Shown piece by piece: positions 2,978 to 63,673 of a DNA stretch of 64,000 nucleotides. This DNA is from Candidatus Bathyarchaeia archaeon (GTDB lineage Archaea > Thermoproteota > Bathyarchaeia > Bathyarchaeales > Bathycorpusculaceae), in the NCBI GenBank assembly GCA_038817995.1, contig JAWAZC010000003.1, forward strand, positions 1,664-65,663, in the 5' to 3' direction. How positions within the stretch are numbered: the stretch's first letter is position 1; each line of letters starts with the position of its first letter. Under the pieces are notes generated by a model that saw only the letters and a list, made by a program, of their open reading frames with translations, made no database searches and had not been told where the DNA came from. The position numbers and the translations under genes were made by a program.

Positions 2978-4161
2978 CTCCTCAGAATCGTGACGTAACA
3001 ATAGTGGCCAGTTCCGCCAACGTTATGGGCCAGCGCCACGTAATTTTTCATCGGTGCTTGCCGCCCCTTTTCAACTGCTTCCTCTCTTAACTGTTTTGTC
3101 AGTTCGTATATCATGGAGCATCCTGTGGCGCCAACTGGGTGACCTTTGGCTTTTAATCCGCCGTCAACGTTTACGGGAATTTTTCCACCTATCTCGGTTT
3201 GTCCCTCGCGGATCAGCTTAGCGCCTTCGCCTTTCTTGCAGAATCCAAGATCTTCATAAGCCATTATTTCGGCTATGGTGAAACAGTCGTGGACAACCGC
3301 CACGTCAAGCTGGTCTGGTGTGACCTTGGCCATTTTATAAGCTATTCGAGAGGCTGAAACCGTTGCTTCTAGCCCAACATAGTCAAGCCTTCTGCTGATG
3401 TTTGCTGTTCCAGAAGCATAGCCTATACCGGCAACCCACACAGGTGTGTCAATCCTAAGTTCCTTAACTTTTTCCTCAGAGGCAAGAATTATTGAGGCTG
3501 CCCCATCAGACACGGGACAGCAGTCGAGAAGCTTTAGAGGTGCAGCGACAACGGTTGAAGACAAAACATCGTCAACCGTTATCTTACTTTGAAAATGAGC
3601 TATCGGGTTCATTGAGGCGTACTTGTGGTTTTTAACTGCGACCAAAGCTAAATCTTCCTCAGTTGTTCCGAACCTAGCCATATGAGCGGTTGCATACAAA
3701 GCGTAATAAGCCGGAAACGTTACACCAAAATTGTGAAACTCCCACAAGTAACAGCCAGCTCTTCCAATCCACTCCATAATGGTGGGGGTGTCGATCTCCC
3801 TCATTTTCTCAACGCCCAATGCCAAGGCGATTTCCGCTTGCCCACTTGCCACAGCCCAGTAGGCCGTCGCAAAAGCAGCACTTCCGCTAGCACATGCAGC
3901 CTCACAACGCACAAGACCCGCACCTGTTAAACCACAATATTCGGCTGAAACAACGGCTGGAAGAAACTCCTCACACCATACTCCTGCCCCAGCAGAACCT
4001 ACCGCTACAAACTCTATGTCTTTTGGGGATATCCCAGCGTCCTCAATTGACGGCTTAAAGGCCTCAAAAGCTAGCTCCGCAAAGCTAATATCGCTTCTGG
4101 CGCCAAACTTTGAATTCCCAACACCGATAACGGCCACTTTTCTCATTTCGCCACTTCCCAA
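2974..4161 (-). CDS. Thiolase (acetyl-CoA C-acetyltransferase, archaeal SCP-x-like type)
   Basis: 395 aa. N-terminal VAVIGVGNSKFG, active-site region CEAACASGSAAF, C-terminal GHPVGATGCS and NVGGTG motifs typical of thiolases. Confidence 0.9.
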   Translation of the reverse strand: MGSGEMRKVAVIGVGNSKFGARSDISFAELAFEAFKPSIEDAGISPKDIEFVAVGSAGAGVWCEEFLPAVVSAEYCGLTGAGLVRCEAACASGSAAFATAYWAVASGQAEIALALGVEKMREIDTPTIMEWIGRAGCYLWEFHNFGVTFPAYYALYATAHMARFGTTEEDLALVAVKNHKYASMNPIAHFQSKITVDDVLSSTVVAAPLKLLDCCPVSDGAASIILASEEKVKELRIDTPVWVAGIGYASGTANISRRLDYVGLEATVSASRIAYKMAKVTPDQLDVAVVHDCFTIAEIMAYEDLGFCKKGEGAKLIREGQTEIGGKIPVNVDGGLKAKGHPVGATGCSMIYELTKQLREEAVEKGRQAPMKNYVALAHNVGGTGHYCYVTILRR

Positions 4162-4232
4162 TAGTTATCTAACGTAAACGCTAAACAGCGAATAGCGAAA
4201 GGTTTCCTTTTGAATATTACTCTTTGGAGACT

Positions 4233-5387
4233 TTAGAACTTTCTGAGGAGATACTTGAGCACCGTCAGCTTTAGGATCTCGCTTGTTCCCTCGTAAATTT
4301 CAGTTATTTTTGCGTCCCTATGGTATCTTTCCACGCGGTATTCGCCTAAATATCCATATCTGCCTAAGGTTTGAATGGCGAAGTCTGTGGTTTCCATTGC
4401 CACGCGGCTTGCATACTGCTTAGCCATGGCTGTTGCCATTGGATCAATTTTTCCCACGTCTATAAGCCAAGCAGCCTTGTAAGTCAAGAGCCTAGCAGCC
4501 TCTATTTTTGTAGCTAACTCCGCTAAAGTGAAGCCTATGGCCTCATGCTGTATTATTGGTTGTCCAAAGGCTTCCCTCTGTTTCGCGTAGTTGAAGGCTA
4601 TCTCCCAAGCGCCTTGAGCCATACCAACAGCCTGAGCCGCCACACTGACCCTTGTTTTGTCGAAAAATTCCACCGAGTGATAGAAGCCTTTGTTAAGCTC
4701 GCCGACGATATGCCAATCAGTAACCTCAACATTGTCAAATCGAACTTCGCCCGTCACTGAGCACCGTATCCCCATCTTATTATGGAGTTTTGTCATTTTG
4801 AGGCCTGAAGTTCCCTTGTCCACAACGAAAAGTGTTTGGCCTTTGTATGTGGGTTTAACTTCCGTGTCTGTTTGCGTCAAAACAATTATAAAGTCGGCTA
4901 AGGGAACGTTTATCACAAATGTTTTTGTGCCGTTTATCCACCATTTATTTCCATGTTTTGTTGCTGTTGTCTCCATGCGAGTTATGTCGCTTCCACTTAT
5001 TTTCGGTTCTGTAAAGGCTGCGGCCGAAAGGTAATCTCCCCTACATATGGGCGGCAAATACCTCTCTTTCTGTTCTTCACTACCGTAGGTGAGAATAAGC
5101 CCGCTACCGAAGTTTCCAGCCGAAATCGCCACGCCAAGGGATGAGTCTGCCCTGCACATTTCCTCTATTACAATGCATGTTTCAAGAAAACCACGACCTT
5201 GCCCGCCATATTCTGGCGGAAAGTGCATGCTTGTGAAGCCATGCCTTGCAGCTTTTCGGTAAAGCTCCAGCGGAAACTCCTCTTTTCGATCCAATTCTAT
5301 GGCAAGTTCTGGTTTGAACTCTCTTTCGCAAAAATCTCTTACAGCGTTCTTAATTTCAATTTGTTCCTCGGTTAGTTCAAAGTTCAT
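4233..5387 (-). CDS. Acyl-CoA dehydrogenase
   Basis: 384 aa. MNFELTEEQ..., FTEP..GSD, and a C-terminal TEIYEGTSEI motif containing the catalytic Glu, characteristic of ACADs. Confidence 0.9.
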   Translation of the reverse strand: MNFELTEEQIEIKNAVRDFCEREFKPELAIELDRKEEFPLELYRKAARHGFTSMHFPPEYGGQGRGFLETCIVIEEMCRADSSLGVAISAGNFGSGLILTYGSEEQKERYLPPICRGDYLSAAAFTEPKISGSDITRMETTATKHGNKWWINGTKTFVINVPLADFIIVLTQTDTEVKPTYKGQTLFVVDKGTSGLKMTKLHNKMGIRCSVTGEVRFDNVEVTDWHIVGELNKGFYHSVEFFDKTRVSVAAQAVGMAQGAWEIAFNYAKQREAFGQPIIQHEAIGFTLAELATKIEAARLLTYKAAWLIDVGKIDPMATAMAKQYASRVAMETTDFAIQTLGRYGYLGEYRVERYHRDAKITEIYEGTSEILKLTVLKYLLRKF

Positions 5388-5522
5388 TTACAAAACCTTT
5401 TCCCAGTTTCTCTTCTACACGCTAAACCTTTGTGGCATACTTAAACATAAGTCCATGTGGGTTTTTGCGAACTCTAAAGCCACACTGTTATCGCTTGTCA
5501 TCGCTGGAGTGCCTCTATTTGG

Positions 5523-6515
5523 CTATTTAGTTTTTTGGGCTTTTATCTCGTTGATCTTGTTTTTAAGGGCCGGCACTATTTTGAAGAGGTCTTCCACCAC
5601 ACCGTAGTCTGAAAAGTTGAATATTGGAGCTTTCGGGTCTTTGTTTACAGCTATAATTAGATCCGAGTTTTTCATTCCAAGGATATGTTGAAATGCCCCG
5701 CTTATTCCTAACGCCAAATAAAGTTTCGGTTTAACAGTTTTGCCGGAGGACCCAACTTGCCTCTCGCTTGGTAGCCAACCCTTATCAACTATTGGACGGG
5801 AACACGCCAAAACTCCGCCCAAGGATTTTGCAAGCTCTTCCACCAATGGTATGTTGCTTCGATCTTTTATTCCTCTTCCAACGCTGACAAGGATATCTGC
5901 GGCCGTTATGTCGACGCCTCCAGGCGGTGGCGGAACATACTCCAAGAAGCGCTTACCAGTTATTTCTTCAGTTAATGGTGATGGAACCTCTTCGATTTGC
6001 CCGTTGATTGGAGCCGATGGTTTTTGGGCTTGGAAAGCTGCTTGACGTACAGTCGCCATGTAACTCTCTGATTTGCGCAGGACGGCTTTTGCGTTTACTT
6101 TTCCACCATACATTTGTCTTGTTACAACAAATGCGTCACCTTCGAAACAGAAGTCTATGCAGTCAGTGGCAAGGGGAATGTTTAGGGCGGCCGCCAGTCT
6201 TGGGGCGAGCTCAACACCATAGGATGTATGCCCAATAAGTGTCAGAATGGGTTTACGCTCTACAATTAAACGTGAAAGGACTTTTTGGTATGCGTCGGAG
6301 TTAAAGTTCTCGAGTTTGTCGTCCTCTACAAGTAAAATTTTTGGCGAGTATTCCGCTAACGTTTTCGCGTGTTCCTTAACGTTTTTACCCAGCAAAACAG
6401 CCGTCAGATTAGCGTTTGTTTTTTCAGCCACCTCTCTGGCTTTAGTTAACATTTCAAAGGTTATGTCTCTAAGCTGCCCCTGTCTATGTTCAGCTAGCAC
6501 AAATATTTCGGCCAT
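5523..6515 (-). CDS. etfA: Electron transfer flavoprotein alpha subunit
   Basis: 330 aa. The C-terminal FAD-binding region (VSVGRGI, LYLALGISGAFQHILGM, IIAVNKDPKAPIF) is a typical EtfA signature. Confidence 0.9.
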   Translation of the reverse strand: MAEIFVLAEHRQGQLRDITFEMLTKAREVAEKTNANLTAVLLGKNVKEHAKTLAEYSPKILLVEDDKLENFNSDAYQKVLSRLIVERKPILTLIGHTSYGVELAPRLAAALNIPLATDCIDFCFEGDAFVVTRQMYGGKVNAKAVLRKSESYMATVRQAAFQAQKPSAPINGQIEEVPSPLTEEITGKRFLEYVPPPPGGVDITAADILVSVGRGIKDRSNIPLVEELAKSLGGVLACSRPIVDKGWLPSERQVGSSGKTVKPKLYLALGISGAFQHILGMKNSDLIIAVNKDPKAPIFNFSDYGVVEDLFKIVPALKNKINEIKAQKTK

Positions 6516-58802: not shown

Positions 58803-59027
58803 ATGAGCCTCGAAGAATACACCAACGAAAAGCTTTGGCCAATCCTTGTGGAAATAGCGCATGCCATGGTTATGTACCCCCACCACAAGGCTTATACGAG
58901 GGATGTTCTGCTTCACGAAAAGCCGGACATAACGCCGCAGGAGCTTGCCTGTAGGCTGCGTATTCCCTTGGGTGAAGCTTTGGTTATACTTTACGAGCTG
59001 AAAAACGAAGCGAAATCTAAGGCTTAG
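58803..59027 (+). CDS. Small hypothetical protein, possible helix-turn-helix
   Basis: 74-aa ORF. ITPQELACRLRIPLGEALVILYELK resembles an HTH recognition segment. It may not be expressed. Confidence 0.35.
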   Translation: MSLEEYTNEKLWPILVEIAHAMVMYPHHKAYTRDVLLHEKPDITPQELACRLRIPLGEALVILYELKNEAKSKA

Positions 59028-59817
59028 TAACCATCCGCACAGTCGCCAAAACAAGAATAACACCGAGCAAAACTTTAAGGATGTCTCTGTCCACAACACC
59101 GGCATAAGAGGCTCCAATAAAAGCTCCTATAACGGAACATACACCCATGGTTATCGCGATGATGCTCGCGTTCCCGTCCAAGTGTCCCATGTTGTGATGT
59201 TTCAGAAAACCCGAAGCCACTGTTGGAATGGAAACAAGTAAGCTGGTGGTTCCAGCTGTTACAATGTCAAGGCCAAAAATATACATTAGAGCTGGAATAC
59301 GAAATTCGCCGCCCGCAACTCCAAGTGCGCCGGAAATAACGCCTATTATTAAACCAACTAGAGCTGCCAGAACAGCTTCTTCCAAAAAACTTGGTGCAAA
59401 GGAAAAAACTATTGGAAATTTAACGAAAGGTTCGAGTCCAATCTTCAAGCCAACAATAACCAGAAAAGCCGCCAGCAATTTTTTTAAAGGTTTTTCTGGA
59501 ATTTTATCTGTTAAAATTGCCCCTAAATAGGCCCCAACTATGGAGAATACCGACATAATTAGGGCAATATCTACAGAGTGGCGGTCCATCAAGCCCAACA
59601 GAAAGCGTCTCAAAAAAGAGACACCAACTGTCAGCAAACCTACGAAGAGGTTTACAGCTACAGCCGTCACAACCGGAAGCCTAACAACGTAAAGCAATAC
59701 GGGAATCCTAAACTCTCCTCCACCGACACCTAGCAAGCCAGCCGCTGCCCCGAGAAGTAAACCGAAAACTGATGCTGCTAAGACCCTAACTGTTAACAGC
59801 TGAAATTTGTCTTTCAA
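59017..59817 (-). CDS. TauE/SafE family sulfite/anion exporter
   Basis: 266 aa. Two internal repeats, each with GVGGGEFRIPVL / GVAGGEFRIPAL motifs. TTG start. Confidence 0.8.
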   Translation of the reverse strand: MKDKFQLLTVRVLAASVFGLLLGAAAGLLGVGGGEFRIPVLLYVVRLPVVTAVAVNLFVGLLTVGVSFLRRFLLGLMDRHSVDIALIMSVFSIVGAYLGAILTDKIPEKPLKKLLAAFLVIVGLKIGLEPFVKFPIVFSFAPSFLEEAVLAALVGLIIGVISGALGVAGGEFRIPALMYIFGLDIVTAGTTSLLVSIPTVASGFLKHHNMGHLDGNASIIAITMGVCSVIGAFIGASYAGVVDRDILKVLLGVILVLATVRMVTKP

Positions 59818-60079: not shown

Positions 60080-60628
60080 TTATTCTACGACGTACCGGTA
60101 AGCTATATGTTCGCCGGCTGTGGGGCTCCTCCTTATTATGCGTATTATGTCGCCAGGTTTTGCGCCTATAGCTTTGACCGCTGGATCTGAAGCTTTTATT
60201 TGTGGCAATTGGTATGGCTTAACCCGGTATTGGGCTAGGACTTTTTCGCGTTCTTCTGGAGTTAATATCTCGTGTTTTGGCACAAGCACGTGTTCAAATA
60301 TGTCGAAGACTGGGAAGGTTTTTGGCAGGAGTTCTATGTGCTTTTTCTTTGCTGTTTGTTTTGCAGCGTTGGTGTAGCGTCCGCTTGCTATAAGGATTCC
60401 ATATTCTATTTCGGCTTCCTTCATGGTTTTTGCCATGCGGCTTACGGCTTGTATGCCAATGGTTTCGTCTGGGACGCACCAAATCAGAATTTTTCTCTTT
60501 TCACTTGGAGATTCAACAAGATAGCTTACCACGTTTTTGACTTTCTCTCTTTTGATAGTTTTGTAGCCTCTAAGTTTGATCAAAATTTTTGCTTTACGTT
60601 CCTCGAGGGTTTCCTCCTCTTCGCTCAA
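60080..60628 (-). CDS. rpo5: DNA-directed RNA polymerase subunit Rpo5 (RpoH), unusually long, with an RPB5-N-like N-terminal domain
   Basis: The C-terminal ~75 aa ([69 protein letters not shown]) are unmistakably RpoH/RPB5-C. About 105 extra N-terminal residues are present (see findings). Confidence 0.85.
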
Positions 60629-60760
60629 ATCTAAAACCTCTGTGAATGGAGCACTCGAAACTCTAATGTGGTGGAAGCCTTAAACTTTGCGCTTCTAAAG
60701 CTTAAAACCGAAGCAGAGAGTATGGCTATAATGTTTGGGGATTTGGGGAAATATCCCTAG

Positions 60761-60844
60761 AAAAAGCCGCTAAGAGGGGTTGCCTCCTACGCTGACATTA
60801 GAATCAGCGAGATTCTAAATGAGAATTTGACGGCTAGTGTCAGC
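60761..60844 (-). terminator. Nested hairpin followed by a T5 tract, 3' of nrdG; candidate terminator or stabiliser
   Basis: The outer stem GCTGACA (60791-60797) / TGTCAGC (60838-60844) encloses a perfect 8-bp stem TTAGAATC (60798-60805) / GATTCTAA (60811-60818) with the loop AGCGA. On the minus strand a TTTTT run (60761-60765) follows. Confidence 0.3.
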
Positions 60845-60864
60845 TTACTAGCGCATCCTTTTCA

Positions 60865-61542
60865 TTAAAAGCGGAGAATCACGTTTTCCACATATTTCTT
60901 CAGAGTTTCGGCAAATTCGGTGAGCGTGTCTGGTGGGTATGGTTGTAGGTTCTTGTATTCTTCACTTAAAGTGTCGCCTGGTATAAACTGTTGCAAGGCG
61001 TAGTTTATGGCGCCTTTGGCTATTTCGCCCATGTGGGTTATGTCTGCTTCCTCAACGATTTTTGGCACAACTGTGGTTCTGAACTCGTATTCAACTTCTC
61101 CAGCTTTCAGCAGCTCGATGGTTTTTAGGAGCGCACTTGTTTCCTTCGTTCCCAAAAGGTGATATTTTTCCGGCGAGGTTTTGAGGTCTAAAGCCACATA
61201 ATCCAAGTAGGGAAGACATTCTTCCAGCACTGTTGGATTTAAGCCATTCGTATCCAGCTTTACATCGAAACCGCGCTCTTTAAGCCTTCTTAAGAAGCGG
61301 GGCAGCTCCTTGTGGATGGTTGGCTCGCCGCCTGTCACGACAACAGCGTCTACGTATTTCTTGCGTTCATCCAAGATTTGAAGGGCTGCTTCCTCGTTAA
61401 GAAAGGGCGGCTGTGGATTAACCACTATGCGCCAATTATAACAGTATGGACAACGCAGATTGCAGCCTGGCGTGAACAGGACTGCTGCCACTCGATCCGG
61501 ATAGTCTATCAGGCTTGTTTTTTGCAAGCCGCTGAACTTCAT
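60865..61542 (-). CDS. nrdG: Anaerobic ribonucleoside-triphosphate reductase activating protein (radical SAM)
   Basis: SLIDYPDRVAAVLFTPGCNLRCPYCYN (CxxxCxxC) and VVVTGGEPT. The internal ATG at 61542, 7 nt after the nrdD stop, is preferred over the track start at 61593. Confidence 0.85.
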   Translation of the reverse strand: MKFSGLQKTSLIDYPDRVAAVLFTPGCNLRCPYCYNWRIVVNPQPPFLNEEAALQILDERKKYVDAVVVTGGEPTIHKELPRFLRRLKERGFDVKLDTNGLNPTVLEECLPYLDYVALDLKTSPEKYHLLGTKETSALLKTIELLKAGEVEYEFRTTVVPKIVEEADITHMGEIAKGAINYALQQFIPGDTLSEEYKNLQPYPPDTLTEFAETLKKYVENVILRF

Positions 61543-61549
61543 CTGGTGG

Positions 61550-63673
61550 TCACCGGGCTGCCACGGCTTGAGGCGTAATAATAGCTTTTTCAAAGGTTCT
61601 GCGCATGGCGAATTCAGCTTGTTTTCCGTCGTTCCACTGGTCTACTGGGCGGAGGTAGCCCACAACCCGCGAGTAAACTTCACATCTGGCTCCGCATTTG
61701 GGACACTGTCTGTGTTCGCCGCTCAAGTAGCCGTGGGTTGGACAAACGCTGAAGGTAGGCGTCAACGAGAAGTATGGCATACGGAAGTTCCAAGTCACCT
61801 TGCGGATGAGCTCCGCAGCAGACTTCCACGAGTGCAGGCGTTCTCCAAGATAAATGTGGAAAACAGTTCCACCCGTGTAAAGTGGTTGAAGCTTGTCTTG
61901 ATGTTCCAACGCCTCAAAAAGGTCCCCTTCATAGTCCACTGGCAACTGGGTCGAGTTTGTATAGAAGGGTTCGGCGCCTTTGGACAAGTACTTTTCGTTA
62001 GCCACTATTATGTCAGGGTACTTGCGTTTGTCTATGCGGGCTAGACGGTAGCTGGCACCTTCGGCTGGCGTAGCCTCTAGATTGTAAATGTTACCCGTTT
62101 CCTCTTGAAAGTCGGCGAGTTTTTCCCTCATGAAGTTTAACACTTTCACTGCAAATTCGAGGCCTTCAGGCGTGGCTATGCTGTATCCGAAAAGGTTTAG
62201 GATAGCCTCATTCATACCCACTAAGCCTATGGTTGAAAAGTGGTTCTTCCAGTACTTCCCAAATGTTTCTTTCACGCCACGGAGGTACCGCTTCGAGTAT
62301 GGGTATAGGCCTTTCTCCGTGAACTGTTCCAGCACCTTGCGTTTTATTTCCAAGCTGTCTTTAGCGAGTTCCATGAGCATCTCCAAACGTTCAAAAAATT
62401 CGTCTTCATCTTTGGCTAAGTAGCCGATTCTTGGAAGGTTTATGGTTACAACGCCAATGCTGCCTGTCAGCGGGTTAGCTCCGAAAAAGCCTCCGCCGCG
62501 TTTGCGGAGTTCCCTGTTGTCTATTCTTAGGCGGCAGCACATACTTCGAACGTCTTCGGGTTTCATGTCGCTGTTCACAAAGTTTGAGAAGTAAGGCGCG
62601 CCATACTTGGCGGCTACTTCGAAGATTTTCTGGGAAACAGGCGAACCCCAATCGAAGTCTTTTGTTATGCAGTATGTCGGTATTGGAAACGTGAAAACTC
62701 TTCCCTTAGCGTCGCCTTTACTGAGGACTTCTGCAAAAGCCAAGTTGAACATTTCCAGTTCCTTCTCCATGTCGCCATAGGTCGCGTCCATAACTTTTCC
62801 GCCGATTATGACCGGCTCGTCCTTCATGAAGTCTGGCACTTCCAAGTCCAAAGTGACGTTTGTAAACGGCGTCTGAAAACCCACACGAGTTGGCACATTC
62901 ATGTTGAAGAAGAATTCTTGAAGGGCTTGCTCGACTTCTTTTTGGCTTAGATCATCATAGCGAATGAAAGGCGCCAGGTAAGTGTCAAAGTTTGAGAAAG
63001 CTTGGGCGCCGGCCGCCTCGCCCTGCAACGTGTAGAAAAAGTTTACCACTTGGCCTAAGGCTGTTCTGAAGTGCTTGGCCGGCGTGCTTTCAATTTTGCC
63101 TGGCACACCACCAAAACCGGTTAGTAACAGATCCTTTATATCCCAGCCAACGCAGTAGGGCCCTAGAACTCCGAGATCGTGGATATGAAAGTCTCCTGAT
63201 ATGTGGGCTTCAGCTACGTTGGGCGGGTATATGCGGCTCATCCAGTATTTGGCGATGACGGTCGAGGATAGGTAATTGTTTAAGCCCTGCAGCGAATAAC
63301 TCATGTTGGAGTTTTCTTTAACCCGCCAGTCCTCCATCTCTAAATACTGGTCCACAAGGTCTGCTTGACTCAATAGGGCTGCTAGTTCCCGTATGTCTTG
63401 GTGCTGCTTACGGTAAAGAATGTAGGCTTTAGCGGTCCGTGCATGTCCGTTCTCTATTAAAACTTTCTCCACAACGTCTTGAATTTCTTCAACCGTCGGG
63501 ACACCGTCTTCGCCGAACCGCTTTTTAAGCTCGGCGACCACTTGGTCGCTTAACCGTTTAGCCAATTCACGATCTTTTCCACCAACCGCCTTAGCAGCTT
63601 TCCAAATGGCGTTTGTTATGCGTTCTTGATCGAAGGGTTCTAATCTACCATCCCGCTTTCTAACAAACTTCAA
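61550..63673 (-). CDS. nrdD: Anaerobic (class III) ribonucleoside-triphosphate reductase
   Basis: N-terminal ATP-cone (VRKRDGRLEPFDQERI...), a large barrel, C-terminal zinc site CPTHG...CPKCG, and the glycyl-radical motif SRVVGYLRPV. TTG start overlaps the nrdR stop (TTGA). Confidence 0.95.
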   Translation of the reverse strand: MKFVRKRDGRLEPFDQERITNAIWKAAKAVGGKDRELAKRLSDQVVAELKKRFGEDGVPTVEEIQDVVEKVLIENGHARTAKAYILYRKQHQDIRELAALLSQADLVDQYLEMEDWRVKENSNMSYSLQGLNNYLSSTVIAKYWMSRIYPPNVAEAHISGDFHIHDLGVLGPYCVGWDIKDLLLTGFGGVPGKIESTPAKHFRTALGQVVNFFYTLQGEAAGAQAFSNFDTYLAPFIRYDDLSQKEVEQALQEFFFNMNVPTRVGFQTPFTNVTLDLEVPDFMKDEPVIIGGKVMDATYGDMEKELEMFNLAFAEVLSKGDAKGRVFTFPIPTYCITKDFDWGSPVSQKIFEVAAKYGAPYFSNFVNSDMKPEDVRSMCCRLRIDNRELRKRGGGFFGANPLTGSIGVVTINLPRIGYLAKDEDEFFERLEMLMELAKDSLEIKRKVLEQFTEKGLYPYSKRYLRGVKETFGKYWKNHFSTIGLVGMNEAILNLFGYSIATPEGLEFAVKVLNFMREKLADFQEETGNIYNLEATPAEGASYRLARIDKRKYPDIIVANEKYLSKGAEPFYTNSTQLPVDYEGDLFEALEHQDKLQPLYTGGTVFHIYLGERLHSWKSAAELIRKVTWNFRMPYFSLTPTFSVCPTHGYLSGEHRQCPKCGARCEVYSRVVGYLRPVDQWNDGKQAEFAMRRTFEKAIITPQAVAAR

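Follow-up and report, generated by a model that had tools for sequence, protein, structure and literature searches.

Eukaryotic RPB5 (RPABC1; yeast Rpb5 in structure 1DZF, human POLR2E, chain E of RNA polymerases I-V) consists of an inactive PD-(D/E)XK nuclease domain followed by an Rpb5_C domain. In RNA polymerase II (Pol II) the RPB5 jaw lies beside the downstream-DNA channel and has been implicated in downstream-DNA binding and in contact with TFIIB (PMC2675907). Archaeal Rpo5 (RpoH) has the assembly domain only (PMC2675907), and the N-terminal domain of RPB5 (RPB5-N) has been described as confined to Eukaryota (PMC3424549). Two other papers likewise limit archaeal Rpo5/RpoH to the assembly domain and treat the N-domain as eukaryote-specific (PMC3906176, PMC1802627). 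A Pyrococcus chimera does not complement yeast rpb5 mutants (PMC3906176). Here we describe an rpo5 gene from a stretch of 64,000 nucleotides (the window) of a Candidatus Bathyarchaeia archaeon (GenBank assembly GCA_038817995.1, contig JAWAZC010000003.1, positions 1,664 to 65,663 of the forward strand). Its product is probably a two-domain Rpo5 of Bathyarchaeia whose jaw domain is minimal, derived from Mrr and homologous to RPB5-N. A reading made from the DNA letters without database searches (the sequence-only reading) had proposed that the product carries a eukaryote-type RPB5 N-terminal domain, and its remark that this domain is usually described as eukaryote-specific agrees with the four papers cited above.

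A further point of comparison is Rpo13 of Sulfolobales, which sits beside Rpo5 at a locus partly taken by the jaw in eukaryotic RPB5 and for which a contact with DNA has been proposed (PMC2675907). A 2026 survey of archaeal RNA polymerase (RNAP) small subunits treats Rpo6 and Rpo8 in Bathyarchaeota, and a long Rpo5 goes unmentioned in the passages available from it (PMC13257274). Full-text literature searches, with subscription-only papers outside their coverage, returned no account of a two-domain Rpo5 in archaea. To that extent we found no prior report of this form of a known RNAP subunit (Rpo5/Rpb5).

The protein's C-terminal part is an archaeal RpoH. Residues 108-180 match RNA_pol_Rpb5_C (PF01191; E 1.8e-32, 111 bits against a cut-off of 23.5), and the long Rpo5 scores 115 bits with the NCBIfam RpoH equivalog NF007129 (cut-off 83). 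Compared with solved archaeal Rpo5 chains (for example those of Thermococcus kodakarensis, 4QIW_H, and Sulfolobus acidocaldarius, 7OK0_H), the C-terminal 75 residues are 53-65% identical and superpose with a root-mean-square deviation (rmsd) of 1.3-1.6 Å; the T. kodakarensis protein is the one that is 65% identical, with a target-normalised template modelling (TM) score of ~0.9. Solved archaeal Rpo5 chains have 77-84 residues, so ~105 residues of the 182-residue protein are extra, and it lies well outside the length by which archaeal Rpo5/RpoH is recognised (~75-90 residues, C-domain only). The claims of the sequence-only reading that a single open reading frame (ORF) of 182 codons ends in an RpoH domain, and that it carries about 105 N-terminal residues beyond the usual archaeal form, are therefore confirmed by the ORF listing, Pfam, NCBIfam and the solved chains. 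Relative to canonical archaeal Rpo5, the long form adds a folded N-domain of ~105 residues, and its gene usually follows nrdD-nrdG instead of standing upstream of rpoB.

The extra residues have the fold of a Mrr-type nuclease. Residues 15-101 match Mrr_cat (PF04471; E 7e-9, 36-38 bits against a gathering cut-off of 21) and NA-iREase1 (PF22722; E 3e-8, 34-36 bits against a gathering cut-off of 27), and in each of 18 diverse N-domains both families are found at the reporting E-value. The AlphaFold2 (AF2) model of the full-length protein is confident (predicted local distance difference test, pLDDT, 90; predicted TM-score, pTM, 0.80), as is that of the N-domain alone (pLDDT 92). In both models, residues ~8-102 run in the order helix, three strands, helix, strand, helix, strand and form a PD-(D/E)XK core. 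The alpha-beta-beta-beta-alpha-beta core is common to this domain and to the Mrr_cat/NA-iREase1 enzymes MspJI (4F0P), AF1548 (1Y88) and AspBHI (4OC8). Unlike in those proteins, the catalytic residues are unconserved here, and the fusion partner is an RNAP subunit, not a DNA-recognition, NACHT or ATPase module. No conserved catalytic D...(E/Q)xK triad was found in the N-domain alignment across clades, and the beta-3 motif varies from IWCVP in the window to MHVLL, VAWLP, IARIP and LLRII elsewhere, with no conserved acidic/Lys pair. The N-domain is therefore predicted to be without nuclease activity.

The sequence evidence for a link to RPB5 was obtained with the C-domain left out. Searched against all of the PDB, a profile of 18 archaeal N-domains has eukaryotic RPB5 in its first seven places (E 7.6e-6 to 1.6e-3), with the alignment at RPB5 residues ~55-118, and no Mrr-type nuclease chain is among its hits at E <=10. 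Four eukaryotic RPB5 sequences were verified against the PDB, and their N-domains were aligned for hhalign and for a hidden Markov model (HMM). The hhalign comparison of archaeal and eukaryotic N-domains gives a probability of 92.5% (E 4.8e-7, 91 columns) and pairs window residues 12-102 with yeast Rpb5 18-131. It sets RGY on RGY, a block of the window protein on LWVEFCDEPSVGVK...GIFVYQNNITPSAMK and 'IELL' on 'IETF', which reproduces the alignment that the sequence-only reading had made by eye. A gap of ~18-25 residues falls opposite a eukaryote-only insertion after RGY. In the opposite direction, the eukaryote-only HMM was run against 3,822 six-frame ORFs from the window and from 88 loci (80 from a genome scan in which each GTDB species was represented once, together with further fetched loci; ~1 Mb of DNA). 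It matches the N-terminal part of the rpo5 ORF in 88 of 88, with a best E of 6e-7, while the best of the ~3,700 other ORFs has E 5.6.

Eukaryotic RPB5 N-domains also match Mrr_cat (E 0.0024-0.014) and NA-iREase1 (E 0.02-0.2), weakly where the Bathyarchaeial domains match both strongly. Metazoan and plant RPB5 score ~10 bits more with the archaeal profile than with either family, which suggests an RPB5-specific signal of moderate size above the generic Mrr_cat signal. At the level of sequence profiles, these comparisons show the N-domain to be homologous to RPB5-N, and in them the Bathyarchaeial domain behaves as a shorter, less derived intermediate that links RPB5-N to Mrr_cat. The description "eukaryote-type" thus holds for the homology and fails for the form: what the archaeal protein carries is a minimal Mrr-like jaw of ~100 residues (~140 in eukaryotes), lacking both the N-terminal extension and the ~18-25-residue insertion after RGY. 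Two further differences are the archaeal type of the C-domain and the host, an archaeon that has only one RNAP.

A structural likeness to Rpb5 was recovered for the full-length protein and is not specific to RPB5 when the N-domain stands alone. The 32 best Foldseek hits of the full-length model in the PDB are all RPB5-family chain E (Pol I/II/III/IV, with two from the African swine fever virus, ASFV, homologue), with E to 2.7e-15 and a query-normalised TM-score (TMq) of 0.66-0.79 over ~150-208 aligned columns. For short archaeal Rpo5 chains the TMq is only 0.39-0.40, and MspJI comes in only at rank 50. Viral RPB5 homologues are two-domain proteins outside eukaryotic nuclei (in the same search ASFV 8Q3B_E has TMq 0.74 and vaccinia 6RFL_E has TMq 0.46); they are far more divergent (18-20% identity) and belong to eukaryote-infecting viruses. 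With the N-domain-only model, MspJI is ranked first (E 3.8e-5, TMq 0.51), AF1548 has the highest TM-score (TMq 0.68), and RPB5 follows with E 1.7e-4, TMq 0.55-0.59 and an rmsd of 2.0-2.9 Å over 75-80 columns. Mrr-type domains and RPB5 are essentially the only significant groups.

Several results weigh against the reading of the gene as an Rpo5 with an RPB5-like jaw, as do the charge of the N-domain and the location of the gene, which are taken up below. The N-domain-only model resembles Mrr-type domains about as much as it resembles RPB5. The modelled inter-domain geometry of the AF2 monomer resembles RPB5, a likeness that may stem from the training of AF2 on RPB5 structures. A single N-domain sequence finds nothing significant in the PDB, with RPB5 in sixth place (E 0.6), and fungal RPB5 scores ~16 bits with the archaeal profile and the same with the generic Mrr_cat model. 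In hmmscan, neither the window protein nor any of the 18 diverse N-domains matches RNA_pol_Rpb5_N (PF03871) at E <=10. This is the family against which the sequence-only reading had suggested a search; the best Pfam matches are Mrr_cat and NA-iREase1. The archaeal N-domains miss PF03871 because that model covers no more of eukaryotic RPB5 than its first 90-99 residues; eukaryotic N-domains weakly match the same two families as the archaeal ones, and on this sequence evidence the missing match does not refute the RPB5 reading. The C-domain, for its part, has bit scores to five eukaryotes equal to those of Thermococcus, Pyrococcus and Methanocaldococcus RpoH. These equal scores and the identity to Thermococcus led us to reject a special affinity of the C-domain to eukaryotes or a recent transfer from them, and the comparison gives no sign of sisterhood with eukaryotes.

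The same observations bear on a history in which Bathyarchaeia fused an inactivated Mrr-type domain to RpoH independently, the likeness to RPB5-N then reflecting joint descent from Mrr_cat. The protein would remain an RNAP subunit and might still serve as a jaw. Such convergence would agree with Mrr_cat as the strongest family match (36-40 bits), with the leading places of MspJI and AF1548 for the N-domain alone, with fungal RPB5 scores that are no higher for the archaeal profile than for the generic Mrr_cat model and with a C-domain that has no special affinity to eukaryotes. The residues common to the N-domain and RPB5-N (RGY, VG, T..A and IEL), which we take to be general Mrr_cat hallmarks, point the same way. 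So do the partners and the carriers: the same N-domain is fused to a zinc finger in P0150 and to an Smr domain in P0138, and the named carriers are Bathyarchaeia (Thermoproteati) and not Asgard archaea, the lineage usually tied to eukaryotes. Against convergence stand a PDB search in which the archaeal profile returns RPB5 and no Mrr-type nuclease chain, and the ~10-bit preference of metazoan and plant RPB5 for that profile over Mrr_cat and NA-iREase1. So do the likeness of both groups in domain order, in the linker into the 'HxLVPxH' motif and in the apparent loss of the catalytic triad, and the superposition of the full-length model on Rpb5 with a TM-score that reaches the upper end of the range given above. 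We consider independent fusion unlikely, though far from negligible.

That the fusion is shared by common descent with the eukaryotic lineage is probable but unproven. A fuller scenario, which we offer tentatively and at somewhat short of even odds, is that a single fusion, in an archaeal lineage, joined a nuclease-dead Mrr-type domain to RpoH, that eukaryotes inherited or acquired the fusion and elaborated it by insertions, and that Bathyarchaeia keep the primitive state. If this is true, the ancestry of a core module of Pol I/II/III is identified. The archaeal ancestor of eukaryotes would have possessed a jawed Rpo5, and most archaea would later have lost it; alternatively, the gene would have been exchanged between a Bathyarchaeia-like lineage and a proto-eukaryote. 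The jaw would gain a concrete ancestry in an inactivated Mrr-type restriction-endonuclease domain. A eukaryote-like RNAP trait in a non-Asgard lineage bears on scenarios of eukaryogenesis and on the counting of "eukaryotic signature" features, and Bathyarchaeia may offer a simple archaeal system in which to ask about the function of the jaw, be it contact with downstream DNA, stability of the open complex or the docking of factors.

The long form is widespread among Bathyarchaeia. A search of 5.8 billion proteins returned 1,752 relatives, the best 120 of which are all 176-201 residues long with both parts present. Searches with divergent members added several hundred relatives, and more than 350 cluster representatives (~176-200 residues) hold both parts. 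The genome scan was queried with the single window protein, and its 80 loci are thus biased to relatives with at least 57% identity; they show 57-88% identity in alignments that span residues 1-182 or begin at residue 2-11. Seventy-nine of the 80 are labelled Bathyarchaeia, Bathyarchaeota, generic archaeal or with the older Miscellaneous Crenarchaeotal Group (MCG) name. The remaining locus (L063, on the 82-kb contig DATGZD010000158.1) is filed under the acidobacterium 'Candidatus Sulfotelmatobacter', yet has archaeal rpo5, nrdD and nrdG; the contig is probably mis-binned. With the N-domain as phmmer query, 1.84 billion representatives yielded only 38 clusters, those with a named source being Bathyarchaeota. 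All named carrier genomes are restricted to Bathyarchaeia, which belong to the kingdom Thermoproteati, and divergent long-form clades (P0155, P0299, P0300) sit on metagenome contigs. Two N-domain homologues have other tails: P0150 (235 residues) ends in a Cys-rich CxxC zinc finger, and in P0138 (220 residues) the C-domain breaks off early and is followed by an Smr domain, so that this protein may be a chimera or a frameshift product.

The N-terminal extension would be unreal if it arose from misassembly, from a frameshift that joined a restriction-endonuclease fragment to rpoH or from annotation of a start upstream of the true, internal one. The TTG start (in place of ATG) might raise that suspicion, as might public annotations that sometimes take only the 81-residue C-terminal part or label the 5' part 'restriction endonuclease, partial'. 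Within the window the interval of the gene holds exactly one ORF, uninterrupted and on the minus strand, and the frame is open across both domains in 88 of 88 fetched loci. These independent contigs include closed chromosomes and long-read metagenome-assembled genomes from many studies, and the claim that the ORF is no assembly or frameshift fusion is borne out by them. In 86 of the 88 loci a start codon lies at the same aligned position (TTG in 59 of them, ATG in 16, GTG in 11). In 68 of 88, a Shine-Dalgarno-like GAGG-type tetramer, mostly GAGGTTTA, is found 3-16 nucleotides upstream of this start, and the GAGGT motif is conserved along with the start position. The ratio of nonsynonymous to synonymous substitution rates (dN/dS), taken over 248 pairs with unsaturated dS, is 0.10 in the N-domain (residues 8-105) and 0.04 in the C-terminal part (residues 106-182), which indicates purifying selection on both domains. 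The confident AF2 fold covers residues 8-101, and the first internal Met (residue 65) falls in the middle of that fold. Given the shared frame, the conserved start and Shine-Dalgarno motif, the dN/dS values and the position of Met65, misassembly, frameshift fusion and internal initiation are dismissed, an artefact of any kind being exceedingly improbable.

By analogy with Pol I/II/III, the two domains of the Bathyarchaeial Rpo5 would divide the work between them. The C-domain (residues ~106-182) is the ordinary archaeal assembly domain and would dock onto the largest subunit. The nuclease-dead Mrr-type PD-(D/E)XK domain fused directly upstream of it (residues ~8-102) would then be held at the lower jaw, next to the channel for downstream DNA, where it may serve as a non-catalytic module contacting DNA, factors or both. 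Incorporation into RNAP and a position at the jaw are thus predicted from the eukaryotic enzymes; the C-domain dN/dS of 0.04 and the 65% identity to Thermococcus Rpo5 lend the former indirect support. The N-domain of the clade of the window is strongly basic (net charge +7 to +13, isoelectric point 9.5-10, ~9.5 for the comparison with the acidic eukaryotic domains), which would suit contact with DNA. In the clade of P0146 and P0153 and in eukaryotes, the N-domain is roughly neutral or acidic (isoelectric point ~5-7). This variation in charge between clades is one of the two adverse points announced above: a basic N-domain is absent from some clades, and the DNA-binding step is weakly supported for that reason. 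The sharp differences in charge suggest that the binding partner of the N-domain may differ between lineages. Rpo13 is a possible functional analogue of the Bathyarchaeial N-domain, judged by its place in the enzyme; it is a helix-turn-helix protein encoded by a separate gene and is unrelated in sequence and fold.

In archaea, rpoH usually heads an rpoH-rpoB-rpoA operon. The second adverse point is that the long rpo5 lies away from rpoB and rpoA in all 88 loci, as the sequence-only reading had noted for the window. No RpoB-like ORF was found in the window or in the 88 loci with a fragment of yeast Rpb2 as phmmer query. Large ORFs beside rpo5 were considered as rpoB candidates and turned out to encode subtilases and PQQ-repeat proteins. 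In 57 of the 80 scanned loci, rpo5 is downstream of nrdD-nrdG on the same strand, and in a second Bathyarchaeial clade it is preceded by a radical-SAM gene and a small zinc-ribbon ORF. A gene set among such unrelated neighbours might be an extra copy, an alternative subunit or a free-standing regulator with an Rpb5_C fold, the canonical short rpoH standing beside rpoB. One published detail also speaks for a paralogue: in PMC13257274, a Bathyarchaeota Rpo5 has the accession MEM2791772.1, two numbers from the Rpo1 accession MEM2791770.1. On account of this proximity, some Bathyarchaeial lineages may have a canonical rpoH copy.

Other evidence fits poorly with a paralogue. The C-domain scores above the RpoH equivalog cut-off, is 65% identical to Thermococcus Rpo5 and has the low dN/dS of 0.04 expected of an essential copy. 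No second Rpb5_C ORF was found in the window or in the ~1 Mb of fetched loci, where the only further hits were noise (E ~1). PF01191 has served as a phylogenomic marker in the data set of a paper in which Bathyarchaeota are also discussed (PMC7554672). Moreover, some 'short RpoH' entries for Bathyarchaeota at NCBI are the long gene annotated from an internal codon. We therefore hold it improbable that the long protein is a second copy beside a canonical RpoH.

The annotation of the family is inconsistent (members P0288, P0289 and P0294), and the same gene may go under the name of an 81-residue RpoH, of 'restriction endonuclease, partial' or of RPABC1. The 81-residue 'RNA polymerase subunit H' entries OGD57471.1 and MGD0805021.1 are the same gene called from an internal Ile codon, with the start 'MPPTLPTFDIF'. 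The NCBI entry MCK4438433.1 calls the 5' part 'restriction endonuclease, partial', and the Joint Genome Institute (JGI) pipeline labels several members RPABC1, the eukaryotic KEGG Orthology (KO) term, an independent annotation in favour of the RPB5 reading. This inconsistency exposes an annotation problem and is probably the reason that the long form has gone unnoticed.

Table 1. Features of the long rpo5 gene and its neighbours (window coordinates; residue numbers for the secondary structure).
Feature	Position	Strand	Remarks
Long Rpo5/RpoH coding sequence, complete	60080..60628	minus	182 amino acids + stop codon; ORF listing, Pfam/NCBIfam matches, full-length homologues in 88 loci
N-terminal domain, residues 1-105	60314..60628	minus	predicted catalytically inactive Mrr-type PD-(D/E)XK fold, homologous to the eukaryotic RPB5 jaw at profile level
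N-domain secondary structure (H, helix; E, strand)	H8-19, E23-30, E33-40, E45-52, H59-71, E76-81, H87-95, E98-101		AF2 model
Linker and C-terminal RpoH/Rpb5_C assembly domain, residues 106-182	60083..60313	minus	PF01191, NF007129
TTG start codon	60626..60628	minus	first ATG/GTG/TTG past the in-frame TAA at 60680-60682
Shine-Dalgarno-like GAGGT	60636..60640	minus	7 nucleotides upstream of TTG; read from sequence
TauE gene	59017-59817		neighbour of rpo5 in the window
Radical-SAM NrdG-like activase	60865-61593		neighbour of rpo5 in the window
NrdD	61550-63673		in the window
ATP-cone-only ORF, 107 amino acids	63670-63993		in the window; overlaps the nrdD start by 4 nucleotides

The neighbours named by the sequence-only reading, nrdG and a TauE exporter gene, are those found (Table 1). 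An Rfam scan of window positions 1-64000 at the gathering threshold returned zero RNA families (no tRNA, rRNA or riboswitch). The gap between nrdG and rpo5 is just 236 bp in the window (60629-60864), unlike in its closest relatives; in L001-L004 and related loci, an opposite-strand pair of PmbA/TldD metallopeptidase genes separates nrdG from rpo5 (~3000-5900 in locus coordinates). No zinc-ribbon-type ORF of at least 50 codons is listed in the gap of the window. In the second Bathyarchaeial clade, the zinc-ribbon ORF (61-63 residues; 7813-7998 in L081 and 7804-7995 in L084) lies 2-5 nucleotides upstream of the long rpo5, with which it is apparently co-transcribed. Its matches, weak and below threshold, are DUF7129 (E 5.5e-5) and the zinc ribbon of Rpo12/RPAB4 (E 0.004).

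The nrdD and nrdG ORFs of the window, as listed, share 44 nucleotides (61550-61593). NrdD carries its own ATP-cone despite the separate ATP-cone-only ORF beside it. In L087 (positions 1-2581), a gene for a thiamine-pyrophosphate-dependent enzyme of the acetolactate-synthase-like type adjoins a divergent long rpo5 and is interrupted by an intein (PF14890).

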